DNA of 64,000 nt from an uncultured Candidatus Saccharibacteria bacterium (GTDB lineage Bacteria > Patescibacteriota > Minisyncoccia > Phycocordibacterales > CAYRGE01): positions 137,949-201,948 of the forward strand of contig CAZTCT010000001.1 in NCBI GenBank assembly GCA_964612415.1, written 5' to 3'. The notes beneath the pieces are model-generated. The model did no database searches, was not told the origin of the DNA, and was given only the letters and a program-made list of their open reading frames with translations. How positions within the stretch are numbered: position 1 is the stretch's first letter; each line of letters starts with the position of its first letter. Made by a program: the position numbers and the translations under genes. Below, in pieces: positions 8,899 to 63,947 of the stretch.

Positions 8899-10398
8899 AT
8901 GAAGACAAGCAGGCTCATTCTCCTGTTTGTCATGTTCCTCGGGGGAGTGGTCGCAAGTTTTGTTTTTGATGCGGATGTATATATAGGCGCCTTTGGGTTT
9001 TTGCTCGGGGGCGCTCTTTTTGTGTACGGGAAGATGGTTCGTGTGGGCAGCGTTTTATTTGTTTCATCACTTTTCATACTTTTCTCTGTCGGTGTCTTTC
9101 GTACGGGGATGATTCACTGGACAGAAAGAAGCGCTCTGCTTGATGAACAAGTGGGGGCGGAGATTATTTTGGAAGGAGTTATTGATGATGAGCCTGATGT
9201 AAGAGCAGGGCGTACTATTTTGGTATTCAAGCCGCAATCAATTCAGGAAGGAGGAAGAGATGTAGACATACAAAATCAGAAGAGGAGTCGGGTTAGGGTG
9301 TACGTTGATCCATATCCGCAATGGCGCTATGGGGAACATGTGCGGTTGCAAGGAGTTCTGGAATTCCCAGAAAATTTTGAGAGTGACACAGGTCGTACTT
9401 TCAACTATGTCTCCTATCTTGCAAAAGACGGTATCTTCTATCAAATGTATCGTCCGCAAGTTACAAGTGTTGGTGAGACAAACAAGCGTTCGATTAAAAG
9501 TGTTTTGTTTTCAATCAAAGCTACCCTCGTTGAGAAAGTAAATGAAGTTCTTCCAGAGCCAGAGAGCTCACTTGCTGGCGGCATTACTTTGGGCGCGAAG
9601 TCATCGCTTGGTGAAGATCTGCTCGATAAGTTTCGTATCACGGGGATTATTCATATTGTAGTTTTGTCTGGGTACAACATCACTATTGTTGCGGATTCAA
9701 TCATGAGAGTTCTAGGGATTTTGCCCAGAATGTTTTCACTTTTGGCGGGGTCAATTGGGGTTGTGTTGTTTGCGATTATGACAGGAGCTGGCGCTACTGT
9801 GGTAAGGGCATCTATCATGGCGCTTCTTGTCGTCATTGCGCGTGCAACTGGGCGAGTGCATGAAACGGGACGCATACTGCTCTTTGCAGCTGCAGCGATG
9901 GTGTTATGGAATCCATACATACTTTTATTTGATCCATCGTTTCAACTTTCATTTGTTGCTACGCTTGGTCTCATTTACCTTTCACCAGTACTTGAGCGCG
10001 CCTTTTCCAAAATCCCAAAGCGTTTTGATTTACGCGCAATTGCCTCTGCGACAATAGCCGCACAGATTGCTGTGTTGCCGCTTCTTCTTTATCAGAGCGG
10101 CATCTTCTCGACTGTCTCATTGCCAGTGAACATGCTTATCTTGCCATTTGTTCCGCTTGCCATGCTCGCAAGTTTTCTCGCCGCAATGTGTGGTTTCATT
10201 GGTGTGGCCTTTGCCTTTCCATTTGGGCTGATTGCGTACTCACTTCTTGCTTATATGTTTGGGGTCGTGGAATTCTTTGCCGGAGTTCCGTTTTCTGCAA
10301 TCACCATTCCTACATTTCCTCTGTGGGCCGTATTTGCCTCGTATGGACTCCTCGCTATTTTGCTCGTGCGTATATATAGACCAACGTCCAAAAATTAA
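8899..10398 (+). CDS. comEC: ComEC/Rec2-family DNA-uptake channel, membrane part (DUF4131 plus competence domain); no fused MBL domain
   Basis: N-terminal TM, an OB-like periplasmic segment, then about 8 TM helices typical of the ComEC competence domain. The ORF stops before any beta-lactamase domain. Confidence 0.7.
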   Translation: MKTSRLILLFVMFLGGVVASFVFDADVYIGAFGFLLGGALFVYGKMVRVGSVLFVSSLFILFSVGVFRTGMIHWTERSALLDEQVGAEIILEGVIDDEPDVRAGRTILVFKPQSIQEGGRDVDIQNQKRSRVRVYVDPYPQWRYGEHVRLQGVLEFPENFESDTGRTFNYVSYLAKDGIFYQMYRPQVTSVGETNKRSIKSVLFSIKATLVEKVNEVLPEPESSLAGGITLGAKSSLGEDLLDKFRITGIIHIVVLSGYNITIVADSIMRVLGILPRMFSLLAGSIGVVLFAIMTGAGATVVRASIMALLVVIARATGRVHETGRILLFAAAAMVLWNPYILLFDPSFQLSFVATLGLIYLSPVLERAFSKIPKRFDLRAIASATIAAQIAVLPLLLYQSGIFSTVSLPVNMLILPFVPLAMLASFLAAMCGFIGVAFAFPFGLIAYSLLAYMFGVVEFFAGVPFSAITIPTFPLWAVFASYGLLAILLVRIYRPTSKN

Positions 10399-46822: not shown

Positions 46823-48766
46823 ATGCTTCCCGGCAAACAACAAAAGAAGAACGGGGCTCCTGAGCGTGCGCCCAATAAGCGATCTCCTGAAGGAGGGAAG
46901 GAGCAGTTTTTTGGTAATCTCGTTACTGCTATTCTTATATTCCTCATCATTGCGACTGCGTATTCTCTCATCGCTGAGCGTGGTGATGCAGCAGAGAAAA
47001 TCGCACTCTCTACTCTTGCGTCAGATATAAGCGCGGGTAATGTGGTGTCACTTACCGTGTCTGGCAATGTCGTAGAGGCCACATACGCGGATGATTCAAT
47101 AAAAGAGACTCGCAAAGAGAATGAGACAGCTCTCTCTGAGACACTTGCAAACTACGGTGTGCGCCCCAATGCGCTTGAGCATGTAGAGATCACCATAAAA
47201 GAGCAAAGTGGATTTGGGTATTGGTTTGTAAATCTCCTGCCGCTTATCCTACCCATTGCACTCATCATCCTTTTCTTCTGGCTTATCTCACGACAAGTGC
47301 GTGGTGCAGGTATGCAGGCGTTCACCTTCGGGCAATCAAAGGCGCGCATGATTGATCCGAATGACAAAAAGCAGAAGGTGACATTTAAAGATGTTGCCGG
47401 AGCAAAGGAGGCAAAAGAAGAGTTAGTTGAGATCGTAGACTTTTTGAAAAATCCCAAAAAGTTTTTGGAGATCGGTGCGCGTATTCCAAAAGGCGTGCTA
47501 CTTATCGGTGCCCCTGGTACAGGTAAGACATTGCTTGCTCGCGCCGTAGCGGGGGAAGCGTCGGTGCCGTTCTTCATCATCTCTGGCTCTGAATTCGTAG
47601 AGATGTTTGTCGGTGTGGGTGCAAGTCGTGTGCGTGACCTTTTCAAAATGGCGAAAAAAGCTGCGCCCGCAATTATTTTCGTAGATGAGATCGATGCCGT
47701 GGGGCGTGTGCGCGGCACAGGTATCGGTGGAGGTAATGATGAGCGGGAGCAAACACTCAATCAAATCCTCGTTGAGATGGATGGATTTGAACCGAACGAA
47801 AAAGTGATAGTTATGGCAGCCACGAACCGGCCGGATGTATTGGACCCAGCACTCTTGCGACCAGGAAGATTTGATCGTCGCGTGGTGCTTGATCTACCGG
47901 ACATAAACGATCGTGAGGAAATTCTCAAAACTCATTCAGGCAAAAAGCCCCTTGCGGAAGATGTGAACTTTCGCGTTATTGCAGAGCGCACACCAGGATT
48001 CTCTGGTGCCGACCTTGCATCTCTCATGAACGAAGGGGCGATCCTTGCTGCGCGAGAGAATCGCAAGACAGTTTCGCAGTTTGACCTCATTCGCTCCATT
48101 GAGAAAGTGATGCTTGGTCCTGAACGCAAGAGTCATCTTTTGAGTAAAAGGGAAAAAGAAATTACCGCATATCATGAAGGTGGGCATGCGCTTGTTGCGT
48201 CTGTGTTGCCGCACTCTGATCCGGTGCACAAAATCTCTATTGTCTCGCGTGGACACGCAGGAGGGTATACGCTCAAGTTGCCGCTTGAAGAGAAGCGACT
48301 TCGTTCACGCAATGAATTTCTCGATGATATATCAAGCGCGCTTGGTGGGTATGTTGCGGAGAGGATGCTTTTCAATGATTTCACTACTGGGCCTTCAAAT
48401 GATATTGCAGTTGCAACAGCGCTCGCGAGAGATATGGTCACAAAATATGGCATGTCAGAAAATATTGGCCCTGTCGCACTTGAACCGGGGGGAGGCCGAT
48501 TAAGTCCAGGGCATGAGCTCGGGAGACATGAATATTCAGAAACAATCTCAACGAAGATTGATGATGAAGTTTCAAGAATAATGCAGGAGGCAAAAAAGAA
48601 AGCAGAAGACGCTATCACTACACACCGAGAGGCATTAGACGCCATTGCCAAGGAACTCATCCGTGTGGAAACTATTGAGCGGGAAGATTTTGAAAAGATA
48701 CTCGTTGCTCATGGGATTACACCCAAGAAGCTCCCTGAAGAGGAGGCAGCGGACCCGACAAAATAA
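46823..48766 (+). CDS. ftsH: ATP-dependent zinc metalloprotease FtsH
   Basis: Two N-terminal TM helices, an AAA module ([25 protein letters not shown]), SRH, and the HEGGHALVA zinc site. 647 aa. Confidence 0.95.
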
Positions 48767-48782
48767 GTAAGAAATAGGTAAG

Positions 48783-48817
48783 AAAAACGGCTCAACCGAG
48801 CGGTTGAGCCGTTTTTT
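48783..48817. terminator. Palindromic terminator element, family copy 4 (aaaaacggctcaaccgagcggttgagccgtttttt)
   Basis: Same stem as copies 2 and 3 with one central substitution (gatc to gagc), between ftsH(+) and the tRNA(-). Confidence 0.6.
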
Positions 48818-48818
48818 C

Positions 48819-48894
48819 TGGTCCGCCTGGCAGGACTCGAACCTACAACCACGGAGATATAAGCTCCGTGCTCTAACCATTGAGCTACAGGCGG
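48819..48894 (-). tRNA. tRNA with anticodon UAU (tRNA-Ile, AUA-reading); CCA encoded
   Basis: Cloverleaf: CCGCCUG-UA-GCUC-AAUGGUUA-GAGC-A-CGGAG-CUUAUAU-CUCCG-UGGUU-GUAGG-UUCGAGU-CCUGC-CAGGCGG-A-CCA. 7/4/5/5-bp stems, U33, A37. Confidence 0.7.
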
Positions 48895-49010
48895 CTTCTG
48901 GCTTGACTATAGTATACAAAAAGTATTGTCCGAGCAATGCATGTTTGTATCCACAGCAAGAAATAAATCTCTCCTATCTAAGAGGGTATAATGTGGGCAT
49001 ATACTTTTTT

Positions 49011-52000
49011 ATGAAGCGCGCGCTTCTTGCTCTGCTTAAAACATTGTTCATTTCTTGCGTTCTTCTTTTTGGAGGTACGCTTGCATTTGCTCAGACTATT
49101 TCTTATACACCGCTTGCTCCTTTGCCTGGAATCAATGATAGTGGTGGGCCAATTACCCTTACCACGTATCTAAGCGGGCTCTTTTATCTTGGACTTGGTA
49201 TTGCAACTATTTTGGCTGTGGTGATGATCGTCTTTGCTGGCGTGCAAATGATCGCAAGCGCAGGCAATGAAGCGTGGCGAAGCGCAGCAAAAGAAAGAAT
49301 TAAAAATGCATTATTTGGCTTGCTCCTTGCTTTGTTTGCATGGCTTATTATTTTTACAGTGAATCCACAAATTCTTGGGGTGCTCTCAACCGGGTTTACG
49401 CTCCAGAGCTCTCCATTTGAGCCGCGTATTCCTGGCACAGGAGGGTGGACTCCAGCAGGTGGGTTCACTCCGCCGCTCGGCACTACACTACCTGGCGGGA
49501 CTGGTTCGGGCGGATCTGGGTTTCCCGTTGGAACATCTGAGCCAAATCCATTTGATATTGACCAGATCATGAGAGATATTGAGAGTGGCAAGCTTGTTCG
49601 AGATCAAATAGAAATTGACCCATCAAGTGACGGGTCGCTTATCCGAACTTGTGCTCAAAAAGAACAAAATGATGGCGAGTGTGCAGCTGCGGATGTGAAT
49701 GGCGATGGGGCTGTGACCATTCTTGACTACAGTTTTCTTATTGATACAACAACAAGATTTGATCTCAATATGGACGGTGTCATTGACCCGTATCCATATA
49801 GACCAATTGAGAGCATGTGCTACATACACGATGGCAGGTACAATCTTTTGGGCATAAATAGTGCTGGAGAGCCGACGACAATCATTGGGATTGATTCAAC
49901 TCCTACACGCACCACGGGGTTCGTATTTGGATTTAATAAGTATGATCCATTTGTAGTCACTGTAGGGGACACTCAATATGAGATACCAAGTAGTGATTAT
50001 CAATATAACTATACACCACGTAATCTTTGGTGGGATTATTTAAGAGCAGATACAGAGCCACGACTTATACAACCACCACTATCAGCGGACGAAATATTCA
50101 ACTTAACTGGCTCTGGTTTGCCACCGGGGCCGCCAGCATTCCCGGGAGACAATCTTCCTCCTCCGCCACCACCTATCCCCAATATTGGCGACGGCGCTCT
50201 TCCACCACCACCACCCGACTTTCCACCAGGTGGGGCGAGTTCTTCTTCGGGGACAGGGAGTACTGGCACCACAGGATCCGTGCCTTCAGGGAGTATCCCA
50301 GTAGTATCTCCTGGGGGTATAACTAGTTTGCCGCTTGTCTCAGAGACGTACTCTCAGAATCAATGTTTTGCAAGTTCGTACGGGACTCGTGTTGGGTTTA
50401 CCATAGCGGAAATTGACATGCTCACAAAAGTTCTCCAGAGCTCTACTGGCGGGGTTCCTGCAACGACAAATTATTATCTCGATCTTAATAAATTGAGTGC
50501 TAATGTTGGGGGATGTTTTGTAAATGGTGCAACATTTGAATTCCTTGGCGGGGATTTCCCTGACAGCTTTAATTTTGGTAGTGGCACCCTTCCTCGGTGG
50601 ATGCATCCTGTGTACTCACATTATTTGTTTAATAATGACTTTTGGCCAAACCCGGACAATTTTTCATTCGGACAATTCTTCTCATTATTTAATAATGACA
50701 GAATCTATGCTTTAGCGGGGTGTAATGTGCAAAGATTCCTCCCGAGCTCCAGTAATCCTGGGCCATTCAGTGCCTATGATCCGATTACCTATACAGAATT
50801 CATGGATAGACCACAGTACATGACAGATACAACCGCACCTCTGCAAATCTTCGGGGCGGCACTTTACGCGACGCTCGTGCAGGCTGACCTCAATCATGAT
50901 GGACGTGTCAATCTTGCAAGCATCGGAGCTCCAACAGGAGATGCTACGCCAGAAGAAATTTCAGCGTGTCTTTCACAAGACCCGGAGAATTTATCAGCAG
51001 AGTGCCAGTCATTAGATATTACCTACGAAGATTTTAGTGGTGACAATGATGATCTTGCGATACTCAACCGCTGTATCACGCAGGATACTGCCACAGGTCC
51101 AGTGGGGGATTGTGTTCAAGCAGACTTCAACCAAGATGGGCATGTTACGACGGCAGACCATAACGGACTTTCTGCGTTGCTCGGCCTTGTGGGGCTAACT
51201 GAGGATCTGCGCACGGAAGGTCTAAGCAGAGCTCCTAATGGAGTAGTCCCTGTTCAAGACTTTGATATCTTACTTTGGACTCCCGACACAACCTATTCTG
51301 ACGCTGACATTCTCAATTTCTGTCTTGGGAAGAAAAAGTGGGGAGGGTGTGAGACGTCCGATCTTGATGGAGATGGACGTATTGATGCAAATGCTCCACC
51401 CCAGGCAACGCGGACCGATGCAGCAATCAACTTCAATTGGGGGTCAGGGAGTCCTATGTCTGGCATTGGGAATGATTGGTTTATTGCCCGATGGACAGCA
51501 GATGTAGATCTTCCAGCTGGAGATTACCGCTTCACGGTGACTGTTGATGACGGGGTTCGTGTGTATGTAGACGACAGACTCATTATTGATAAGTGGAAGA
51601 ACCAAAACTCTCCTACATATACAGCAGATATGACTTTAGCTGCCGATACGCACAATATTCGCGTTGAATATTATGAAGCACGCAATGCGGCGCTTATACA
51701 ATTTGACTTTGGTCTTGTGGGAGGCTCTCCAGTCTCTGTCCCCGGAGGATATGCTGCAGAATTTTGGAACATGGCAAGTAATGCCCGCGGAGCGTCACCT
51801 GCTATTCCTACGGGTGATCAACTTTTGATGAATGATATCAAGAAGTATGACATCAATGGCGACGGGATCATCTCCTTTGAAGGCAATCTTGTTCACCTCA
51901 CCGCACTCTCAACTACTATTGAGGTGGGTGGTAGAGTGCGTTTGGATTGGGATACTTCACGTGTTACGGATTGTGTTGCATCAAGTGAGCCTGCTGGGCT

Positions 52001-52931
52001 CTGGTCTGGGCCAAAGGCACTCAATGATAGTGAGATCAGTCCAATTTTAAATCAAAAAACAGCGTTCACTCTTACATGTACTAATGAACGTACAGGCTTA
52101 CCGATGTCTAATACTGTTAAAGTAGACGCTGTAGATACCACACCAATTGAGTTTAATCCAGATAACATCACTATTTCAGTATCTCCTTCATCAGTCTCTG
52201 CAGGAGATAGTGCGCGTATTTCTTGGAATGCCATTGGGGCCACAAGCTGTACCGCATCAGGAGGATGGAATCCCGTCATCAACACCTTTGGCACATATCC
52301 AGCAGATAATGTCCAAACAACCCAAACATTTGTCATCACTTGCGAACGAGATGGCGTGTCGGGAACTGCAAGCACTACGCTTGAGGTGGTACCAAGGGTT
52401 CCTGTCACATTGCTCGCTGCTCCAAGCGATGTTGCAATGAATGGATCAGCAAAAATTTCATGGGTTGCTTCAAATGTGCGACAAGGAAGAGATGGTGTGT
52501 GCACTGCTTCAGGGGATTGGAGTGGCTCTTATCGCGCCTCTGGAGAAGTTACAGTGAATAATCTAACTGCGACGAGCACGTTCTTTATGACTTGTGGGGG
52601 AGAGACTGCATCTGTTGTCGTCACCGTGAGACCATCTGTTTCTGGTGGAGGGTTTATTCCGGAAGCTATCGTTCTCTCTGCTACGCCTCCGCAAATCAAT
52701 CCAGGGTCTGTTGTTTTCCTCACATGGAGCGCACCTGGTGCAACCAATTGTATAGCAAGTCATCCGGTAGGGAGCCCTACTGTTCCCGGGTGGACTGGAC
52801 TCAAGGAGAGTGGAGGATTTGAACAATATACACTCCCTGCTTCAATTATTTCTGATACCATTGAATTTGCTCTTTCCTGTACGGATGGGACAAATAGTGG
52901 CTCAAAAACAGCAAGCATTGTCGTAAACTAG
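49011..52931 (+). CDS. Giant secreted/surface protein (1306 aa): signal peptide, VirB2/TrbC-pilin-like double-TM N-terminal domain, Pro-rich linker, dockerin/EF-hand-like Ca-binding repeats, PA14 domain, C-terminal Ig-like domains
   Basis: Start set at MKRALLALL... (signal peptide). The upstream part of the track ORF overlaps the tRNA. Hydrophobic pair LFYLGLGIATILAVVMIVFAGV / LFGLLLALFAWLIIFTV. Repeats DVNGDGAVTILD, DLNHDGRVNL, DFNQDGHVT and DLDGDGRID. PA14-like NFNWGSGSPMSG...FIARWTADVDLPAGDYRFTVTVDDGVRVYVDDRLIIDKW...HNIRVEYYE. Confidence 0.6.
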   Translation: MKRALLALLKTLFISCVLLFGGTLAFAQTISYTPLAPLPGINDSGGPITLTTYLSGLFYLGLGIATILAVVMIVFAGVQMIASAGNEAWRSAAKERIKNALFGLLLALFAWLIIFTVNPQILGVLSTGFTLQSSPFEPRIPGTGGWTPAGGFTPPLGTTLPGGTGSGGSGFPVGTSEPNPFDIDQIMRDIESGKLVRDQIEIDPSSDGSLIRTCAQKEQNDGECAAADVNGDGAVTILDYSFLIDTTTRFDLNMDGVIDPYPYRPIESMCYIHDGRYNLLGINSAGEPTTIIGIDSTPTRTTGFVFGFNKYDPFVVTVGDTQYEIPSSDYQYNYTPRNLWWDYLRADTEPRLIQPPLSADEIFNLTGSGLPPGPPAFPGDNLPPPPPPIPNIGDGALPPPPPDFPPGGASSSSGTGSTGTTGSVPSGSIPVVSPGGITSLPLVSETYSQNQCFASSYGTRVGFTIAEIDMLTKVLQSSTGGVPATTNYYLDLNKLSANVGGCFVNGATFEFLGGDFPDSFNFGSGTLPRWMHPVYSHYLFNNDFWPNPDNFSFGQFFSLFNNDRIYALAGCNVQRFLPSSSNPGPFSAYDPITYTEFMDRPQYMTDTTAPLQIFGAALYATLVQADLNHDGRVNLASIGAPTGDATPEEISACLSQDPENLSAECQSLDITYEDFSGDNDDLAILNRCITQDTATGPVGDCVQADFNQDGHVTTADHNGLSALLGLVGLTEDLRTEGLSRAPNGVVPVQDFDILLWTPDTTYSDADILNFCLGKKKWGGCETSDLDGDGRIDANAPPQATRTDAAINFNWGSGSPMSGIGNDWFIARWTADVDLPAGDYRFTVTVDDGVRVYVDDRLIIDKWKNQNSPTYTADMTLAADTHNIRVEYYEARNAALIQFDFGLVGGSPVSVPGGYAAEFWNMASNARGASPAIPTGDQLLMNDIKKYDINGDGIISFEGNLVHLTALSTTIEVGGRVRLDWDTSRVTDCVASSEPAGLWSGPKALNDSEISPILNQKTAFTLTCTNERTGLPMSNTVKVDAVDTTPIEFNPDNITISVSPSSVSAGDSARISWNAIGATSCTASGGWNPVINTFGTYPADNVQTTQTFVITCERDGVSGTASTTLEVVPRVPVTLLAAPSDVAMNGSAKISWVASNVRQGRDGVCTASGDWSGSYRASGEVTVNNLTATSTFFMTCGGETASVVVTVRPSVSGGGFIPEAIVLSATPPQINPGSVVFLTWSAPGATNCIASHPVGSPTVPGWTGLKESGGFEQYTLPASIISDTIEFALSCTDGTNSGSKTASIVVN

Positions 52932-53017
52932 TCTTTAAGAGGGGTATAAACACAAAGAGTTTTGAAAGAGAGGGAATGACGATATAATGGACTCATTAAC
53001 AATGAGTCCATTATTTA

Positions 53018-56000
53018 TTGTGTATGATGCGTAAATTCCTTCCGATTTTTGCTTTGACCTTAGTTGCTTCCGCTAGTTTTTTGCTCTCTCCTTCATTAAG
53101 TCGCGCGCAAACGACACTCTCTGAGGAGGAGCAGCTCGCGCAAATGGCCTCATTGCTGCAAGCGCTGCAGTCTGTGGTCAATACACTAAGCGCTGCGTCA
53201 GGGCAGAGTGCGCAGGGTGTTCCGCCACCGCCACCTCCGCCACCATCACCTGCAGGTGATGGATACTTTGGGGAATATTGGAGCACTCCTTCTGCGGGAG
53301 CGTCACCTGCGATACCAACAACTGCGCCAACCGCCACTCGTCTTGATACAAGCATTAACTTCTCTTGGGGGTCGGGGTCTCCTATGTCGAGTATCCCCTC
53401 CGATCACTTTATTGTTCGTTGGACAAAACAGCAGGATTTTTCGGGAGGGGACTATCTATTTAGTGTAAATGCCGATGATGGCGTGCGTTTGTATATAGAT
53501 GACCAGCTCGTTATTAATCAATGGATCAACCAATCCGCAACAACATATACCGCCGGGCGAACGCTTGCTGCAGGGACTCATACATTGCGAATTGAATATT
53601 ACGAAGCAGCTGGCTCTGCGACGATGCAGTTTAGCTTTACTCAAACAGCTGTTGCTCCTCCGGTTACCCCAGCCCCCACCGTCACCCTCACCGCAAACCC
53701 AACTTCAATCACACAAGGACAATCATCCACCCTCACCTGGAGCTCAACCAATGCCACAAGCTGTACCGCATCAGGCGGATGGACAGGCACCAAGACAACG
53801 TCAGGTACTCAAGCAGTCTCACCAACCGCAAACACTACCTACACCCTCACTTGTACAGGAGCAGGTGGAAGTGCAAACCAGAGTGTGACGGTGGGGGTGA
53901 GTGCAAACCCTGCACCAACGGTTACCTTTACCGCAAACCCAACTAGTACGACCGCTTCTCAGGGCGCAACTCTTTCGTGGAGCTCAACCAATGCCACAAG
54001 CTGTACCGCATCAGGCGGATTTTTGTGGACAGGAAGTCGCGCATTGTCTGGCTCTCAATTTATTACCCCTGAATCAACCACTACCTTCACTCTTGCATGT
54101 ACTGGGGCAGGTGGAACTACCACAAAAACGGCCACCGTTACGGTTGTCTCTTCTGGAACTACAAGTGGTCAGCTTTCTGGGAGCGCAAGCGTAAAGGCTT
54201 CGTCGCAGAACACCGATCTTTCGTCAGAAGGCACTACTGATTGGGTTCATTGGGGTTTATCAATCCCAACAAGTGTGAATCGAAAGTCTGGAGTGACGGG
54301 GCAGATTGGTTCTATGACGACCATTGGTGCAGCCTCTCTCAAGCGCTACGCTGACGATCGTGCGAAAGTATCTTGGGTCGGCGGTACGCCTACTGCAAGT
54401 ACAGGGAGTACTCCTGCCGGAGTGTACATAAAAGTAAATGGAAGTGGTTACACATTCACTGTTCCTGCAGATACGACAACACGCACACTAAAAATTTATC
54501 TTGGTGCGTGGAATGCGCAAGGTCTATTCCAAGCTTTTCTCAATGACAACAGTGCGAGTCCATACTCGGTGATTGTTGATGCTGGGTCAACGGGGACAGC
54601 AACAGATCGTGTCATTACGCTCACATATAAAGCTGCGTCAGCAGGGCAATCCCTGACAGTGCGCTACACACTTTTTGATGATTATGGGCTTGACGGGAAC
54701 ATCACTTTACAAGCAGCTACGCTTCAAGGTGTTTCTTCCACCCCAGCCCCCACCGTCACCCTCACCACAAACCCAACTTCAATCACACAAGGACAATCAT
54801 CCACCCTCACCTGGAGCTCAACCAATGCCACAAGCTGTACCGCATCAGGCGGATGGACAGGCACCAAGACAACGTCAGGTACTCAAGCAGTCTCACCAAC
54901 CGCAAACACTACCTACACCCTCACTTGTACAGGAGCAGGTGGAAGTGCAAACCAGAGTGTGACGGTGGGGGTGAGTGCCGCAACGGCCTACAATCTTGTT
55001 TACAGTACATCAGCGAGCCGCTCAAACCCCGCCGCTCTTAATGGCGCGGTAGTTTCGGGAGGTATCTATGTATTCTTGACCCCAGAGACGAACATAACTG
55101 GGGATGTGCTCTTTTATATAGATAACGTTTCTGGCAGTGGTACTGCGTATAAGACAGAATCAAACGCTCCGTATGATCTTGCGGGTACAAACACAAGTAA
55201 TGGAAGTGCGGCGCCGTACAACACAGCACAACTTTCTAATGGAACTCATACTGTTACCGTGCGACTTAACACGAATACGGTACTTACCTCAACGTTTACT
55301 GTGGCGAACAGCTCTTCCACCCCAGCCCCCACCGTCACCCTCACCACAAACCCAACTTCAATCACACAAGGACAATCATCCACCCTCACCTGGAGCTCAA
55401 CCAATGCCACAAGCTGTACCGCATCAGGCGGATGGACAGGCACCAAGACAACGTCAGGTACTCAAGCAGTCTCACCAACCGCAAACACTACCTACACCCT
55501 CACTTGTACAGGAGCAGGTGGAAGTGCAAACCAGAGTGTGACGGTGGGGATAGAGCTCGGGTATTTTGGAGAGTATTGGGATGTACCAACGGCGGGAGCC
55601 TCTCCTTCAATCCCAAGCACTGCACCAACATTTACGCGCATTGACCCAGCAATTGATTTTGATTGGACTACGAATGCACCAGGTACCTCGGTCGCCGCTG
55701 ACCACTTCATTGTACGCTGGACACGAAATGTTGATTTTGTCGCGGGAACATATCGCTTTACTGCATCAAGCGATGATGGGGTGCGCGTGTACGTTGACAA
55801 TCAACTACTTATAAATGACTGGACTAATCATGGCGTACGCACCTATGTGAATGACCTGACCCTTTCTGCGGGCAGTCATGCATTGCGCATTGAGTATTAT
55901 GAAAATACAGGCAGTGCGGTCGCGCAATTTAGCTTCGCACCAGTAACCTCTACCGGGAGTGTTGATACACAAGCTCCAACAGTAGTTATGACCTCTCCAT

Positions 56001-58306
56001 CATCAGGGGCTACTGTATCTGGTACGGTCGGTATCAGTGCTAGTGCCGCGGATGATGTGGGAGTAGTCGGAGTACAGTTCAAATTAGATGGAGCAAATCT
56101 TGGACCCGAAGATACAAGTGCTCCGTACGCCATGTCTTGGGACACCACAAGCGCGGCGAGTGGGGCACATACCATTAATGCAGTTGCACGAGATGCAGCG
56201 GGGAACAATAGGACATCTACCGGCGTATCTGTCACAGTAAATAATCTCACCGCACCACCGCCACCGCCAGCACCAGCACCCTCTTTTGACTCGCAGGCGC
56301 CGACAATTTCAGGAATAACTACCTCCAGTATTACTACAAGTGGAGCAGTTATCTCATGGACCACAAACGAAGCAACTACGCAGCAAGTAGACTATGGGCT
56401 TTCGGCATCATATGGGGCACAAACAAGTACACAAACGAGCCTTTCTACAAGTCACAGTGTTACATTAAGCAATCTCTCGCCAAACACTACGTATCACTTT
56501 CGAGTTCGCTCTGCTGACGCGGCGGGGAACGTGAGTGTCTCTCTTGATCAAACACTTACTACTGCATCCTTGGCAGATACGCAAGGTCCAAACGCAATCA
56601 CCAATGTTTCCGTTTCTGATATTCGTTCAAATTCAGCAACGGTGACATGGACTGTTCCCTCGGACATTCCTTCCGGTGCTCCTGCTTCATATGACTTGCG
56701 CTATAGCACCACGCTCATAACGCTAAGCAACTTCTCATCACGCACACAAGTGGCTGGTGAGCCAACTCCAACGAGTGCGGGTGCAACGCAAACATATACC
56801 CTTGCTGGGCTATCTCCCAGTACGCTCTACTATGTGGCTATTGTGTCAAAAGATGCTGCGGGGAATACATCATCTATATCAAATGTGATGACGTTTACCA
56901 CTGTCGCTGAAACAACCACTACCACAACCAGCACAAACAGTGGCACGAATACCTCTACCTCTTCTGGGACAAATAGTGGCACCTCGTCTAGTGGCGGAGG
57001 TGGTGGAGGAGGTGTTGTACAAACAATTGCTTCACCAAGAAACTTTATTGCGAGAGGGGCATCAAACCAGATTCTACTCTCATGGAGCAATCCACAAGAC
57101 ACTGAATTTATTCGTGTAAAAATAGTGCGAAAAGCAAACAGTGTTCCATCTTCATCATCCGACGGTACTACTGTGTATGAGGGAACAAACCAGACTTTCA
57201 CTGACACTAATCTTTCAAGAGACATCCTCTATTATTATGCTGCGTATAGTATTGATCGATCACTCCGTACTTCATCCGCTGTGTACGCCCAAGCGCGGCT
57301 AGGGCAACTCTCCGACGCAGAGGCAACGCAATCTCTTACGACCACTTCAGGAGGCGTCCCCACTGCACCCACAGCTCCTTCTGCGCCACAAATAAACACA
57401 GGCACAGTACCAACGGGAGTGTTTACCATAGGCTTGCAGGTGGGCTCTCGAGACATTCAAGTAAAACAACTCCAGCAACTTCTCAACTCTCTCGGCTTCA
57501 CGGTCGCTGAAAATGGCGCAGGTTCATCTGGTAATGAAACCGAGTTCTTCGGCCCAGCAACGGCGAATGCTGTCGCGCGATTCCAAGCTGAAAATATCCC
57601 TGAAGTTTCTCCGACGGACCGTGGTCTTGTCGGGCCAGTCACAAGAGTAAAACTTAACTCACTCGCATCAAGTGCTGGACTTGTGTCAACTACAGCTTCT
57701 TCTGTTTCAAATACCACCTCAACACAAGTACCCGCAGTATCTAGTGGGGCAGTACGTTTTACGCGGAACCTAAAAGTAGGCGATAGAGGAAGTGATGTGA
57801 AAGATTTGCAACAAGCGCTCAACTCTCTCGGCTTTACGGTCGCGTCTAGTGGCGCGGGGTCCTCAGGTAATGAAACCGAGTTCTTCGGTCCAGCGACGGC
57901 GGACGCGGTAGCACGTTTCCAAGAAGAATATAAGCAGGAAGTGCTTGCTCCGTACAATCTTGCTCGCGGGACTGGATTTTTTGGAGCATCAACTCGAACA
58001 AAGCTCAATACTCTTGTGGGGGGAGAAGGGAGTGGGGCAGGAGATACCGCAGCACTCATTGCGCTTCTCCAGGCACAACTTCTTGCGCTTCAAGCACAAC
58101 TTGCAGCTATTCTTTCAGGGCAAACAACTCAAGTAACTGTGCCATCTATTTCAACCCCAATTCCTACCACACCAAGTGCACCAACGACTTCACCTGACAA
58201 CAGTGCGCAAACATCAACTGATACATCGGGAGATACTACAGGGAGTACCTCTTCGGATTCTGGCGTACCACCGCCACCTCCGCCTCCACCGCCTCCTGCG
58301 TTTTAA
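53018..58306 (+). CDS. Giant cell-surface protein (1762 aa): signal peptide, two PA14 domains, at least four near-identical Ig-like (Big) repeats, two FN3 domains, two peptidoglycan-binding (PG_binding_1) repeats, poly-Pro C-terminus
   Basis: Signal peptide MRKFLPIFALTLVASASFLL. PA14-like blocks at about 53273-53648 and 55551-55935 (HFIVRWT...DDGVRVYVDNQLLINDW...LRIEYYE). Repeated PAPTVTLT(A/T)NPTSITQGQSSTLTWSSTNATSCTASGGWTG...YTLTCTGAGGSANQSVTVG. FN3-like ISWTTNEATTQQVDYG...YHFRVRSADAAGN. PGBD-like DIQVKQLQQLLNSLGFTVAENG...FFGPATANAVARFQ (twice). Confidence 0.65.
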   Translation: MCMMRKFLPIFALTLVASASFLLSPSLSRAQTTLSEEEQLAQMASLLQALQSVVNTLSAASGQSAQGVPPPPPPPPSPAGDGYFGEYWSTPSAGASPAIPTTAPTATRLDTSINFSWGSGSPMSSIPSDHFIVRWTKQQDFSGGDYLFSVNADDGVRLYIDDQLVINQWINQSATTYTAGRTLAAGTHTLRIEYYEAAGSATMQFSFTQTAVAPPVTPAPTVTLTANPTSITQGQSSTLTWSSTNATSCTASGGWTGTKTTSGTQAVSPTANTTYTLTCTGAGGSANQSVTVGVSANPAPTVTFTANPTSTTASQGATLSWSSTNATSCTASGGFLWTGSRALSGSQFITPESTTTFTLACTGAGGTTTKTATVTVVSSGTTSGQLSGSASVKASSQNTDLSSEGTTDWVHWGLSIPTSVNRKSGVTGQIGSMTTIGAASLKRYADDRAKVSWVGGTPTASTGSTPAGVYIKVNGSGYTFTVPADTTTRTLKIYLGAWNAQGLFQAFLNDNSASPYSVIVDAGSTGTATDRVITLTYKAASAGQSLTVRYTLFDDYGLDGNITLQAATLQGVSSTPAPTVTLTTNPTSITQGQSSTLTWSSTNATSCTASGGWTGTKTTSGTQAVSPTANTTYTLTCTGAGGSANQSVTVGVSAATAYNLVYSTSASRSNPAALNGAVVSGGIYVFLTPETNITGDVLFYIDNVSGSGTAYKTESNAPYDLAGTNTSNGSAAPYNTAQLSNGTHTVTVRLNTNTVLTSTFTVANSSSTPAPTVTLTTNPTSITQGQSSTLTWSSTNATSCTASGGWTGTKTTSGTQAVSPTANTTYTLTCTGAGGSANQSVTVGIELGYFGEYWDVPTAGASPSIPSTAPTFTRIDPAIDFDWTTNAPGTSVAADHFIVRWTRNVDFVAGTYRFTASSDDGVRVYVDNQLLINDWTNHGVRTYVNDLTLSAGSHALRIEYYENTGSAVAQFSFAPVTSTGSVDTQAPTVVMTSPSSGATVSGTVGISASAADDVGVVGVQFKLDGANLGPEDTSAPYAMSWDTTSAASGAHTINAVARDAAGNNRTSTGVSVTVNNLTAPPPPPAPAPSFDSQAPTISGITTSSITTSGAVISWTTNEATTQQVDYGLSASYGAQTSTQTSLSTSHSVTLSNLSPNTTYHFRVRSADAAGNVSVSLDQTLTTASLADTQGPNAITNVSVSDIRSNSATVTWTVPSDIPSGAPASYDLRYSTTLITLSNFSSRTQVAGEPTPTSAGATQTYTLAGLSPSTLYYVAIVSKDAAGNTSSISNVMTFTTVAETTTTTTSTNSGTNTSTSSGTNSGTSSSGGGGGGGVVQTIASPRNFIARGASNQILLSWSNPQDTEFIRVKIVRKANSVPSSSSDGTTVYEGTNQTFTDTNLSRDILYYYAAYSIDRSLRTSSAVYAQARLGQLSDAEATQSLTTTSGGVPTAPTAPSAPQINTGTVPTGVFTIGLQVGSRDIQVKQLQQLLNSLGFTVAENGAGSSGNETEFFGPATANAVARFQAENIPEVSPTDRGLVGPVTRVKLNSLASSAGLVSTTASSVSNTTSTQVPAVSSGAVRFTRNLKVGDRGSDVKDLQQALNSLGFTVASSGAGSSGNETEFFGPATADAVARFQEEYKQEVLAPYNLARGTGFFGASTRTKLNTLVGGEGSGAGDTAALIALLQAQLLALQAQLAAILSGQTTQVTVPSISTPIPTTPSAPTTSPDNSAQTSTDTSGDTTGSTSSDSGVPPPPPPPPPPAF
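53670..53904 (+). repeat. Intragenic direct repeat copy 1 (approximately 230 bp, Ig-like domain unit)
   Basis: Near-identical at nucleotide level to 54744-54978 and 55321-55549. It differs by one or two bases, e.g. accgcaaac versus accacaaac. Confidence 0.8.
54744..54978 (+). repeat. Intragenic direct repeat copy 2
   Basis: Same approximately 230-bp unit. It also creates spurious alternative-frame ORFs in the track (54675-54962). Confidence 0.8.
55321..55549 (+). repeat. Intragenic direct repeat copy 3
   Basis: Same unit. It ends at the junction with the second PA14 domain. Confidence 0.8.
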
Positions 58307-58342
58307 CACAAAAAGCCCGTCGCATATGCGCCGGGCTTTTTG

Positions 58343-60523: not shown

Positions 60524-60623
60524 TGTATGACAATTGTATCATTTCTCTTGGTCTCAAGATGACGTGGTATACTTGGCGGCAGGTTTTGTTCCTCTTCAAC
60601 TAAATAAAAGTGAGGTAATCGCC

Positions 60624-61718
60624 ATGGAAACAATTGTATACGGCCTCTGGGGTCTTGCCTGGTGGCAGAAAATCCTTTTTGTCCTTGTGGCAACTCATAT
60701 TACGATCGCTTCGGTGACCATTTATCTGCATCGCGCGCAAGCACACCTTGCGCTGAGTCTGCATCCTGCGATCGCACATTTCTTCCGCTTTTGGCTCTGG
60801 CTTACTACTGGTATGCAAACGAAAGAATGGGTTGCAGTACATCGCAAGCATCATAGTACCGTTGAGACAGAGGCTGATCCGCATAGTCCCCAAGTGTTTG
60901 GCATCTGGAAAGTCCTTTTTGAAGGAAGTGAATTGTATACGCAGGCCCGGGCAGACAAGGAAATGGTTGAGCGATGGGGCAAAGGAGCTCCTGACGACTG
61001 GATTGAGCGGCACATCTACTCAATGCGGTGGCTTGGGATTTTCTCTTTGCTTATCGTCGACATTATTCTGTTTGGGATTTCAGGGATATCCGCATGGGGT
61101 GTTCAGATGCTCTGGATTCCATTTTTCGCGGCAGGTGTCATCAACGGCGGTGCGCACTATTTCGGGTATCGTAATTACGAAACAGATGACTCGTCAACAA
61201 ACCTCGTGCCGTGGGGGATATTGATCGGAGGCGAAGAGTTGCACAACAATCATCACCGTTTTCCTGTCTCAGCACGCTTTTCTGTGAAGAAAGGGGAGTT
61301 TGATGTAGGTTGGCTTTACATTCGTTTACTGGAGATATGTAAGCTTGCGCGGGTGAGCGCAGAAAAACTTGCTCCGCATTGGAATGAGCATGACCCAAGA
61401 TGGATGCTCAATCGATACAGACAGCAAGTACTGCTTCCTGTTGCCAAAGAAACTTTCTCCAAAGAGATGTATCGCCGATTCAAACGACTTGCCATGTATC
61501 AATCATGGAGTGCTTCGCATCGCGAGGAGCTCTCAGTGCTCCTCCGGCAGAACGATACTTTGGCTCGTATCTGGTACATGAGAGAAAGACTGGCCGCTTC
61601 TCTCCAGGAAAAAGGCGACTCAATTATTGCGTGGCGCAAAACTGCGCAAGAAAGTAGCATCAGACTACTGCAAGAGTTTGCCAAACGTTTCCAATCCTTA
61701 CCTCACAACGCCCAGTAG
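60624..61718 (+). CDS. Membrane fatty-acid (acyl-CoA/acyl-lipid) delta-9 desaturase with approximately 120-aa C-terminal extension
   Basis: Three histidine boxes in canonical order: HRAQAH, VHRKHHSTVETEADPHSP (HRxHH...DPH) and HNNHHRFP. Four predicted TM helices. Start set at METIVYG with an upstream GTGAGG SD. Confidence 0.75.
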   Translation: METIVYGLWGLAWWQKILFVLVATHITIASVTIYLHRAQAHLALSLHPAIAHFFRFWLWLTTGMQTKEWVAVHRKHHSTVETEADPHSPQVFGIWKVLFEGSELYTQARADKEMVERWGKGAPDDWIERHIYSMRWLGIFSLLIVDIILFGISGISAWGVQMLWIPFFAAGVINGGAHYFGYRNYETDDSSTNLVPWGILIGGEELHNNHHRFPVSARFSVKKGEFDVGWLYIRLLEICKLARVSAEKLAPHWNEHDPRWMLNRYRQQVLLPVAKETFSKEMYRRFKRLAMYQSWSASHREELSVLLRQNDTLARIWYMRERLAASLQEKGDSIIAWRKTAQESSIRLLQEFAKRFQSLPHNAQ

Positions 61719-62825: not shown

Positions 62826-63947
62826 ATGGCTGGAGTTATTTCAAAAATCTTAAAATTTAATCTGACACCCGGGAAAGTAGTGATTGGTATTGATATCGGA
62901 ATGTCAGCGATCAAAGTAGTGGAGCTTTCTGGTGAGAGAGGGAAGGCGATACTCAAAAATTACGGAGAGATCGCTCTTGGTCCTTACGCAAGCAGCACGA
63001 TAGGCCAGGCGGTGCGGCTTTCTGAGGAACGTATCGCACAGGCTATCACTGATGTCCTTAAAGAAGCTAAAATAGAAACAAAAAGAGCGGTGCTTGCGCT
63101 TCCTCTTGGCTCCACACTCCTCTCTTTCATTGAAGTGCCTACGGCAGACGAAGAAAAACTTGCGCGGATTATTCCCATTGAAGCCAGAAAATATATTCCG
63201 GTGCCAATATCAGAGGTGACGCTTGATTGGTGGGTCCTTCCACAACATGGTGATATCACACAAGTAAAAGCGGGAAGTGTGGGCGAGCCCGCAGAAAAGC
63301 AGAGTAAAATGTCTGAAGTGGTCATCTCTGCGATTCACAATGAAACGCTGAGTAAATTTTTAAGAATTCAGTCTGAGGCGAAGCTTGATGTTAAGCAATT
63401 TGAAATAGAAATATTCAGCAGTATCCGCTCTGTTATTGGTCGGGACATGTCTCCGATCATGGTTTTAGACATGGGCGCTGGAAGCACAAAACTTGCAATG
63501 GTAGAATATGGAATAGTGAGAGGGTACCATATCATCAACAAAGGGGCGCAAGATGTAACACTTGCCCTCGCTTCATCTTTGGAGATTAGCATGGAGAAAG
63601 CAGAGGAGGTGAAGCGCACAGCTGGTCTTGATGGAATGGTTGACGGTAAAAAGATCGCAGATGTTGCTTCTACTACCCTTGAGTATATTTTCAGCGAAGC
63701 TGAAGCGGAAATGTTGAAATATCAAAGAAAGACAGGTAAGCCAGTGAGCCGCCTTATCCTTGTGGGGGGAGGGGCGATGCTCAAGGGCGTTGATAAGCTT
63801 GCTAAGGACACGCTCAAAGTTGAGGTTGTGCGTGGCGATCCATTTGCAAAAACCGAGGCTCCCGCCTTCCTTGCCCCAACGCTTCGCGAGGCTGGTCCTG
63901 AGTTTGCAGTTGCCATCGGCGCGGCACTTAAAGCCCTTGCAGAATAA
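62826..63947 (+). CDS. pilM: Type IV pilus assembly ATPase-like protein PilM (actin/FtsA fold)
   Basis: VIGIDIGMSAIKVVEL...ALPLGSTLLSFIEVP...LDMGAGSTKLAMVEYG...LILVGGGAML is the PilM/FtsA-like pattern. 373 aa. Confidence 0.8.
   Translation: MAGVISKILKFNLTPGKVVIGIDIGMSAIKVVELSGERGKAILKNYGEIALGPYASSTIGQAVRLSEERIAQAITDVLKEAKIETKRAVLALPLGSTLLSFIEVPTADEEKLARIIPIEARKYIPVPISEVTLDWWVLPQHGDITQVKAGSVGEPAEKQSKMSEVVISAIHNETLSKFLRIQSEAKLDVKQFEIEIFSSIRSVIGRDMSPIMVLDMGAGSTKLAMVEYGIVRGYHIINKGAQDVTLALASSLEISMEKAEEVKRTAGLDGMVDGKKIADVASTTLEYIFSEAEAEMLKYQRKTGKPVSRLILVGGGAMLKGVDKLAKDTLKVEVVRGDPFAKTEAPAFLAPTLREAGPEFAVAIGAALKALAE

Follow-up and report, generated by a model that had tools for sequence, protein, structure and literature searches.

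A VirB2-like pilin module at the head of a giant PA14-containing protein, a candidate adhesin encoded beside a peptidoglycan-binding partner in a Patescibacterium

Two adjacent genes in a 64-kb window of contig CAZTCT010000001.1 (the window being the whole stretch of DNA analysed, from an uncultured Candidatus Saccharibacteria bacterium) encode giant modular proteins, here called P1 and P2. P1 starts with a signal peptide and a two-helix module of the VirB2-like T4SS_pilin family (T4SS, type IV secretion system; PF18895), which is continued by a long array of Ca-binding loops, a PA14 domain and PKD/Ig-like repeats, and P2 combines two PA14 domains with peptidoglycan-binding repeats. The explanation favoured here, at a probability of roughly 0.42, is that P1 is a pilin-borne adhesin, which a T4SS would extract from the membrane and expose either in few copies or at the tip of a pilus, and which would act as a membrane-anchored adhesin beforehand. 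More generally, a reasonable reading of both sequences is that P1 and P2 are surface adhesins of an attached, host-dependent cell.

A preliminary description of this DNA had reported two adjacent giant open reading frames (ORFs) of 1306 and 1762 aa, and both are genuine. P1 (49011..52931, +, 1306 aa) starts at an ATG, because a longer ORF from a TTG at 48804 would run over the gene of tRNA-Ile(UAU) (48819-48894, -) and was rejected. P2 ends at 58306 (+) and starts either at an ATG at 53027 (1759 aa, the form in the public record) or at a TTG at 53018 (1762 aa). A full-length homologue of P1, P0002 (83% identical), comes from another sequencing run. The modules of P1 are the following:

49011..49094 (+), signal peptide, aa 1-28 (...LAFA/QT), from the translation and a hydropathy peak
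49095..49415 (+), VirB2-like T4SS_pilin module, aa 29-135, from PF18895, hydropathy and AF2 helices
49416..49595 (+), Gly/Pro/Thr-rich linker, aa 136-195, from the sequence; predicted disordered
49596..49835 (+), first Cys-bracketed Ca-loop pair, dockerin-like, aa 196-275 (loops at 228 and 251), from Dockerin_1 and EF-hand_5
49836..50870 (+), fast-evolving middle, aa 276-620, with poly-Pro at 383-402, from identity to P0002
50871..51395 (+), Ca-loop modules 3-5, aa 621-795 (loops at 626, 705 and 784), from loop motifs and conserved Cys pairs
51396..51848 (+), PA14 domain, aa 796-905, and a trailing GYAAEFW...ASPAIPT strand to aa 946, from Pfam and PDB 6QE7
51849..52928 (+), last Ca loop (aa 947) and four PKD/Ig-like two-Cys repeats, aa 958-1306, from repeat comparison

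The pilin module follows a cleavage site whose context (A-Q-x-Y-x-P-L-A-P-L-P-G) is conserved among relatives, and consists of the YTPLAPLPG motif, transmembrane (TM) helix 1, a basic loop (RSAAKERIKN) and TM helix 2, which ends in NP. Hydropathy peaks centred on aa 10-22, 61-77 and 105-117 correspond to the signal peptide and the two helices, which AF2 places at aa 50-82 and 87-117. Residues 49-114 match the Pfam T4SS_pilin family PF18895 with 37.6 bits (gathering score 26.6), a family hidden Markov model built in this analysis scores the module at E 5.5e-38, and P1 carries all the invariant or near-invariant positions of the family, being up to 57% identical in this module to stand-alone pilins of 112-165 aa. 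No match of P1 to TrbC/VirB2 (PF04956) was found at E<=0.01, and among the NCBIfam models P1 reaches a sub-threshold score with the pilin-like conjugal transfer model of Mycoplasma integrative and conjugative elements (NF045849, 28.2 bits, E 1e-6). Three relatives (P0038, P0047 and P0080) match PF18895 and PF04956 on overlapping residues, with 90.8 bits to TrbC for P0038. The two families can thus be regarded as homologous, P1 being linked to TrbC/VirB2 transitively only; both score and topology assign P1 to PF18895, and its score does not assign it to PF04956. The TrbC/VirB2-like N-terminus proposed for P1 in the preliminary description, behind a cleavable signal peptide, therefore survives in its VirB2-like part, through a PF18895 match above the gathering score, and loses the direct relationship to PF04956.

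VirB2-like pilins are widespread in Patescibacteria, often in arrays near a monoderm-type T4SS, and are essential in one cultivated species, Ca. Southlakia epibionticum (PMC12102498, PMC10633639, PMC12857230); the arrays comprise 2-11 genes (PMC12102498). P1 resembles these pilins in its order of signal peptide, YxPLAPLPG motif, helix, basic loop, helix and NP. They are small and mostly encoded near virB4 or in arrays, whereas P1 is an orphan in a housekeeping slot with an array of ~1,170 aa, and C-terminal cargo on Patescibacterial VirB2-like pilins was not described in the literature searched. The classical TrbC/VirB2 pilins (PF04956; F, T and RP4 pili) share the two-helix hairpin predicted for P1, with a basic loop that faces the lumen, but have 70-120 aa and are in some cases cyclised head-to-tail, which a C-terminal fusion such as that of P1 would preclude. 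The 'Pam' pili of CPR bacteria were considered as a counterpart and rejected, as their pilins have an Ig fold, assemble by donor-strand exchange and are unrelated (bioRxiv 10.64898/2026.03.03.709456).

In a HMMER scan of 1.84 billion representative proteins with P1 aa 29-135 as the query, 15,546 relatives passed E<=1e-3, and 1,391 of them also passed E<=1e-10. Among the best 150, 79 have at least 250 aa, and PF18895 is matched by 78 of these 79. The residues after the pilin domain were counted in the 131 single-domain proteins of the same best 150: their median is 107 aa, with at least 200 aa in 23 proteins, at least 400 in seven and at least 800 in P1 and P0003 only. The extension of P1, about 1,170-1,182 aa, is the longest of the best 150. 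The fusion of a pilin to an extracellular array, which had been considered unusual in the preliminary description, is therefore a common arrangement in Patescibacteria, as 67 of the 131 proteins carry an extension of at least 100 aa and the syntenic orthologues described below have 486-763 aa. The cargo of the relatives includes SLT, NlpC/P60, YkuD, weak CHAP and He_PIG domains, as well as dockerin-like loops, and a PA14 domain is present in one of the 79 longer proteins, P1 itself. Only the size of the extension and the PA14 domain are exceptional in P1. Long and short pilins are interleaved, to the point that the pilin domains of P0037 (529 aa) and P0041 (164 aa) are 74% identical.

Some relatives are chains of 3-8 pilin domains. 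Tandem 'poly-pilins' with 5-8 T4SS_pilin domains per polypeptide (P0032, P0033, P0035, P0038, P0047 and P0080; 455-820 aa) were observed, together with proteins in which 2-4 pilin domains precede an SLT lytic transglycosylase (P0028-P0030), a fusion of VirB2-VirB1-like type; no description of either was found in the literature searched. The pilin and CHAP-like fusion P0027 sits within a PrgI / TraC-like / VirB4-like cluster next to dnaA. At this locus (L089, 1-13000, GCA_048617235.1) the T4SS cluster adjoins yidC-rnpA-rpmH-dnaA-dnaN and contains two unannotated proteins of ~1,095 aa, PrgI, TraC-like and VirB4-like genes and then the fusion, a placement in agreement with the reported origin-proximal T4SS of Patescibacteria.

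The closest pilin domains to that of P1 belong to five proteins (P0036, P0037, P0039, P0040 and P0043; 486-763 aa) that carry the same Pro-rich linker and Cys-bracketed Ca-loop modules in the same order, the first Ca-loop pair of P1 being collinear with that of all five. All four that could be placed on contigs (P0036, P0037, P0039 and P0040) occupy the slot of P1, in the order SmpB(-), FtsH(+), a gene of ~222 aa(-), tRNA-Ile(UAU), the pilin-Ca-loop gene(+) and RecG(-), and two of the four loci continue with tRNA-Ser, PRTase and PilM, which is the order of the window at 46.3-63.9 kb. The P1 family is found at one syntenic locus in five other assemblies. Together with L089, loci L091-L095 suggest that cargo-bearing pilins may divide into a hydrolase class embedded in T4SS clusters and an orphan adhesin class. 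No P2-like gene is present at the four placed loci, where RecG directly follows. These four orthologues and P0003 (986 aa) share with P1 the pilin module and the Cys-bracketed Ca-loop scaffold but lack PA14, and the four PKD-like repeats of P1 recur, among these relatives, in P0003 only. The Ca loops equivalent to those at aa 784 and 947 of P1 lie ~15-20 aa apart in all the shorter relatives (P0003, P0036-P0040), and P1 is an enlarged form, in which a PA14 domain was inserted between these two loops and four PKD-like domains were appended. A search with P1 over the contigs of GTDB species representatives gave no relative, and a search of metagenome contigs with a P1/P0002/P0003 alignment gave six generic pilin loci and no more P1-like genes.

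The FtsH-RecG pair is conserved in 52 GTDB representatives, with a gap of 124 bp to 5.2 kb between the genes. Across Paceibacteria (L003-L082) the gap between the convergent genes behaves as a variable slot, with cargo such as a polysaccharide lyase plus CBM60, a PG_binding plus hyaluronidase-like protein, a Cache/PAS histidine kinase or a class II ribonucleotide reductase; examples are L013 10141-11451, L082 12299-14392 and L054 4092-6218. The idea that this slot generally holds pilin genes was rejected, since the 52 GTDB loci have no pilin-like ORF and contain unrelated cargo. Given the syntenic orthologues and the unrelated cargo of the gap elsewhere, P1 is a conserved, vertically inherited gene of one subclade in a variable slot.

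Comparison of the P1 and P0002 genes gives a dN/dS of 0.07 overall, with saturated synonymous sites, which indicates that P1 is a functional gene kept by strong purifying selection. The pilin module is 95% identical (dN/dS 0.03, dS >1), the first Ca-loop pair 95%, the PA14 domain 94.5% and the PKD-like repeats 92.5%, and aa 276-620 fall to 55-66%. The pilin module is therefore constrained as strongly as the PA14 domain, and the middle of the protein is fast-evolving. This variable region, in which a lenient Pfam scan detected no family and AF2 stays below a pLDDT of 50, may tune binding specificity.

The PA14 domain of P1 (PF07691) scores 66.8 bits (cut-off 24), with a match to PDB 6QE7 at 2.6e-30, and all three PA14 domains of the two proteins are closest to 6QE7 and 6QDI, PA14 dyads that sense polysaccharides (E about 1e-26 to 1e-30). 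Sequence homology is clear (2.6e-30 to 9e-29) with these dyads, 6QE7 being that of Clostridium thermocellum RsgI3, and with the PA14 domain of Lap/RTX adhesin (6M8M). The RsgI3 domain sits in an anti-sigma factor, whereas those of P1 and P2 belong to adhesin-like arrays, and the P1 domain, unlike the dyads, is nested in a dockerin-like Ca-loop pair and has its first beta-strand motif after the domain. The nesting, between the two loops of the pair, covers 51396-51881 (aa 796-957); the GY..E.W strand opens each PA14 domain of P2, whereas P1 has it (GYAAEFW at aa 913) behind the domain. Such an order resembles a circular permutation, or else the strand is what is left of a second PA14 domain.

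Matches to Dockerin_1 (PF00404, 36.9 bits, cut-off 22.9) and EF-hand_5 (37.3 bits, cut-off 25.9) accompany six D-x-[ND]-x-D-G loops in P1, at aa 228, 251, 626, 705, 784 and 947, some of them paired (228/251 and 784/947) and several preceded by a Cys-x(8-12)-Cys bracket. No cohesin family match was found in P1, P2 or their neighbours, for which reason these modules are named dockerin-like Ca loops and not cellulosomal dockerins. The 'Ig-like' repeats are a two-Cys module of ~80 aa with four copies in each protein. They gave no direct Pfam match, and a profile against PDB sequences gave nothing significant; PKD/Ig-like is a fair label because repeat 1 of P2 is 60% identical to P0184 aa 865-941, a stretch scoring 69 bits on K319L-like_PKD (PF22352). 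Between P1 and P2, the PA14 type shows 50-55% identity and the PKD-like module ~36%. Neither protein has an LPxTG motif, as sortase-anchored adhesins of Gram-positive bacteria do. Poly-Pro runs lie at aa 383-388 and 398-402 of P1 and at aa 66-73, 1077-1081 and 1748-1757 of P2.

Most of the domain content of the preliminary description is borne out by these data: one PA14 domain in P1 and two in P2, scoring above the Pfam cut-off in both proteins, poly-Pro linkers, dockerin and PG_binding profiles above their cut-offs, and, for P2, two FN3 domains, two PG_binding_1 repeats and a C-terminus of ten prolines (aa 1748-1757). Its four Ca-binding repeats of P1 are indeed dockerin/EF-hand-like loops, to be counted as six by motif, and its Ig-like repeats keep a fair name with no direct Pfam or PDB match behind it.

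The modules of P2 are the following:

53027..53254 (+), signal peptide (aa 1-27), Leu/Gln-rich helix and poly-Pro (aa 66-73), from the sequence and hydropathy
53261..53641 (+), PA14 domain 1, about aa 79-205, from Pfam PA14 and BLASTP to the P1 PA14
53666..54160 (+), PKD-like repeats 1-2, aa 214-378, where the first 239-nt repeat starts, from repeats and hydropathy
54161..55318 (+), PKD-like repeat 3 (54740-54979) with an unassigned beta-rich domain on either side (aa 379-571 and 652-764)
55319..55945 (+), PKD-like repeat 4 (aa 765-844) and PA14 domain 2 (aa 845-973), from Pfam, BLASTP and repeats
55976..56896 (+), Big_7 (aa 984-1052), poly-Pro (1077-1081) and two fn3 domains (about aa 1090-1290), from Pfam
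57435..58006 (+), two PG_binding_1 repeats, about aa 1470-1660, from Pfam in two stretches
58007..58306 (+), Leu/Ala/Gln-rich helix, Ser/Thr/Pro-rich tail, C-terminal PPPPPPPPPPAF and stop codon, from the sequence and hydropathy

The Pfam scores of P2 are 128.5 bits for the two PA14 domains, 65.5 for Big_7, 63.7 for the two fn3 domains and 69.1 for the two PG_binding_1 repeats (PF01471), which also appear as a diverged DNA repeat of 167 nt at 57440 and 57776; no family was found in aa 367-768 in a lenient Pfam scan. Apart from the signal peptide, hydropathy picks out only a Gln-rich helix near aa 1687, and P2 has no membrane anchor. No full-length homologue of P2 was found in 5.8 billion clusters, and its ~80-aa repeat occurs in >1,100 proteins; P2 is an addition specific to this lineage, built from commonly found parts. 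It is a new member of the known class of modular Patescibacterial giants annotated as 'peptidoglycan-binding protein'. Two of these (P0234, 2939 aa, and P0298, 1762 aa, the latter 41% identical to P2 over one third of the P2 length) share with it the C-terminal Big_7/fn3/PG_binding_1 layout; what sets P2 apart is its pair of PA14 domains and its near-identical PKD-like repeats.

These repeats reside in three direct DNA repeats of 239 nt (53666-53904, 54740-54978 and 55319-55557; 100/100/97% identical), which encode identical PKD-like domains and where the copy number is likely to vary or the assembly to collapse; their near-identity suggests a very recent duplication or gene conversion. At both ends of mature P2 (aa 28-76 and 1661-1759; 53108-53254 and 58007-58303) a Leu/Gln/Ala-rich amphipathic helix stands beside a poly-Pro run, of 8 Pro at the N-end and 10 at the extreme C-end, and these symmetric ends possibly serve oligomerisation or wall spanning. 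Across P2 (52001-58000) the GC content is 0.49-0.50 and the GC skew -0.04 to -0.07, as compared to ~0.46 and a positive skew elsewhere, a shift that may reflect its Thr/Ser/Ala-rich composition (16.5% Thr) or a foreign origin.

In the mechanism proposed here, P1 and P2 would be complementary cell-surface adhesins of an ultra-small, presumably host-attached Patescibacterium of the Paceibacteria type. Sec/YidC would insert the P1 hairpin so that its basic loop stays on the cytoplasmic side and its two ends face the exterior, and therefore the entire C-terminal array is predicted to be extracellular, comprising the flexible linker, the Ca2+ loops, the fast-evolving middle, the PA14 module for sugar binding and the four PKD-like domains. 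The C-terminus lies on the exterior of the tube in all solved conjugative pili. Because of this position, and of the constraint on its conserved residues, P1 is proposed to share its machinery with the short stand-alone pilins. A T4SS encoded beyond the window would take P1 from the membrane pool and display it at low stoichiometry, with the tip of the pilus as the most plausible site, and the molecules still in the membrane would work as anchored adhesins. P2 would be secreted and held non-covalently on the cell's own peptidoglycan, with its N-terminal PA14/PKD array pointing outward, and together both proteins would bind glycans of the host cell surface. The bridging of the cell's own wall and a host glycan, as proposed in the preliminary description, fits P2 through its PG_binding_1 repeats and not P1, which would be anchored in the membrane or a pilus and has no wall-binding module. 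In host-attached Paceibacteria, T4SS pilins and proteins with peptidoglycan-binding, Ig or PKD domains rank among the uncharacterised genes with the highest expression (PMC10936435), which is consistent with a role of P1 and P2 in surface interaction.

Several observations weigh against a pilin-borne adhesin. A packed shaft has no room for an appendage of ~1,170 aa on each subunit, and the incorporation of P1 into a pilus therefore needs a special stoichiometry. No T4SS gene was found among the ~40 ORFs scanned in the 64-kb window, which is one part of the genome, and no second pilin-like ORF in the window; P1 is thus encoded there apart from virB4, prgI/virB3, virB6 and any pilin array, and its orthologues likewise lie among housekeeping genes, outside T4SS clusters. 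The missing neighbours are not disqualifying, because ~40% of the genomes have pilins away from virB4 (PMC12102498). On the structural side, the weak AF2 model of the N-terminal 200 aa (mean pLDDT 52.6) retrieved generic helical hairpins at E>0.2 from the PDB with Foldseek, with no pilin among the top matches, a search that discriminates helical hairpins poorly and speaks neither for nor against a pilin, and the AF2 model of the core (aa 136-800, from an alignment of eight sequences) has a low-confidence mean pLDDT of 42.9. The CPR filaments solved so far are the unrelated Pam pili only (bioRxiv 10.64898/2026.03.03.709456), and no Patescibacterial VirB2-like pilus is known to have been visualised. 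Sugar binding by PA14, Ca2+ binding and host attachment are, moreover, inferred from family membership.

Some of these points would suit the main rival explanation, possible if doubtful, in which the P1 hairpin is a co-opted two-helix membrane anchor and export signal with no role in a T4SS. P1 would then stay in the cytoplasmic membrane as a long tethered adhesin that extends through the wall. The orphan position of P1 and its orthologues in a housekeeping slot without T4SS genes nearby agrees with it, as do the Gly/Pro linker and poly-Pro runs, suitable for a wall-spanning stalk, and an extension whose size speaks against shaft packing. However, a mere anchor should keep its hydrophobicity and not its sequence, and the module is 95% identical at saturated dS, retains the extramembrane YxPLAPLPG and NP motifs common to thousands of stand-alone pilins, and belongs to a family where pilins with long extensions intermingle with short ones, their domains being up to 74% identical. 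The hairpin could also be a transient carrier, the array being released by proteolysis after TM2 and then remaining free or wall-associated, possibly docked onto P2. The C-terminus of RP4 TrbC, which is trimmed during pilin maturation, offers a model for this unlikely scenario; the disordered Gly/Pro linker directly after TM2 is a plausible cleavage zone, the dockerin-like Ca loops suggest protein-protein docking, and P2 would be wall-bound with two unassigned domains. Yet no protease gene adjoins P1, as FtsH is a general housekeeping protease that is syntenic even at the empty slot, neither in P2 nor in the neighbours was a cohesin or other partner domain detected, and there are P1 orthologues without any P2.

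Two further alternatives concern the function of the arrays and the reality of the genes. P1 and P2 might form a cellulosome-like, Ca-dependent scaffold scavenging environmental polysaccharides such as pectin or xylan as nutrients instead of adhering to a host, given that all three PA14 domains are nearest to the biomass-sensing dyads 6QE7 and 6QDI, that P1 has Dockerin_1 matches and that another lineage has a polysaccharide lyase plus CBM60 in the same slot. This seems improbable for proteins without any glycoside hydrolase, lyase or cohesin domain, in a window that is reduced and dominated by housekeeping genes, as is typical of host-dependent Patescibacteria. That the giant ORFs are chimeras or mis-assembled repeats is hardly credible. 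The case for it lies in the 239-nt repeats of P2 (97-100% identity), as the Logan assembly of run SRR15237813, which is identical to the window over 6634 of 6634 bases (47090-53723), breaks within their first copy and leaves the repeat number of P2 supported by a single assembly. For P1, the preliminary description had raised misassembly or frameshifts as a check, and the gene passes it: the second assembly agrees base for base, the full-length homologue P0002 comes from another sample, and the dN/dS of 0.07 is joined by the syntenic orthologues. For P2, the same check is favourable as to its single uninterrupted frame of 5.3 kb and its coherent domain order and leaves the repeat copy number to one assembly, although the assembled route is the sole linear path through the repeats, so that the uncertainty is limited to copy number.

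P1 and P2 stand in an otherwise housekeeping environment (PGK, RecJ, RNase H, ComEC, S7, EF-G, EF-Tu, SecY, rpoB/C, NDK, IF3, SmpB and FtsH, and further RecG, a fatty-acid desaturase, tRNA-Ser, a ComF-like PRTase and PilM). The FtsH encoded upstream of P1 is 66-75% identical to those of Nomura-, Yonath-, Taylor- and Kaiserbacteria and of 'Paceibacterota' metagenome-assembled genomes, which assigns the window to a Patescibacterium of the Paceibacteria type that lacks a close species representative. P1 is preceded by the FtsH terminator and a tRNA gene. The remaining features around both genes are the following:

48819..48894 (-), tRNA-Ile (anticodon UAU), directly upstream of P1, from ARAGORN
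52984..53014 (+), perfect 14-bp hairpin ATAATGGACTCATT-AAC-AATGAGTCCATTAT in the 95-nt P1-P2 spacer
58311..58342 (no strand assigned), hairpin between an A-run and a T-run, a bidirectional terminator between the convergent P2 and recG, from the sequence

The hairpin of the spacer ends 12 nt ahead of the P2 ATG and overlaps a TATAAT-like hexamer; conceivable roles for it are attenuation, processing or the control of P2 translation. The tRNA-Ile(UAU) gene lies beside the P1-family gene in every relative examined (L091-L096; for instance L091 9841-9915, L092 9656-9730, L093 9798-9872 and L095 1787-1861). Its UAU anticodon would read AUA directly, a codon usually read by a lysidine-modified CAU. 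A protein of the fatty-acid desaturase family (PF00487, 51.8 bits) is encoded at 60534-61718 (+) in a type of genome that generally has no fatty-acid synthesis, and might modify host-derived lipids. Genes of ComEC (8899-10398) and PilM (62826-63947) are also present in the window, and this genome therefore has the competence and type IV pilus apparatus typical of Patescibacteria; a type IV pilus cluster may begin with PilM at the edge of the window.

The locus bears on how ultra-small Patescibacteria recognise and hold host cells; their T4SS and its VirB2-like pilins are essential in the one species tested. The literature searched describes small VirB2-like pilins and their arrays and no cargo-bearing ones, and the fusion to cargo, the syntenic family of P1 and its form enlarged by PA14 and PKD-like domains extend this known kind without being categorically new. 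At this locus, a pilin module of a type routinely fused to extracellular cargo heads a syntenic family of pilin plus Ca-loop scaffold, to which one lineage adds a lectin domain and a wall-bound partner. The role proposed for P1 in target contact by a T4SS resembles that of the VirB5 tip adhesin and of the wall-anchored adhesins of the PrgB type, a functional analogy with no sequence relationship. VirB5 is described as absent from Gram-positive-type T4SSs, Patescibacteria excepted (PMC12857230), and PrgB is not detectable in Patescibacteria (PMC12102498). A broader and rather unlikely proposal is that Patescibacterial VirB2-like pilins serve, through their outward-facing C-terminus, as a modular display platform for wall hydrolases, Ca-loop scaffolds and lectins, with the lectin arm of P1 (>1,000 aa) capping or decorating a T4SS pilus and recognising targets as VirB5 or PrgB do for other T4SSs. 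If this were true, P1 would be the first natural adhesin-bearing conjugative-type pilin and would give a molecular handle on host choice by epibionts, with aa 276-620 as the specificity determinant. If the pilin module is competent for assembly, such proteins would be the missing adhesins of the Patescibacterial T4SS, and even if it is an anchor only, the P1 family and its hypervariable middle would be good candidates for determinants of host range.

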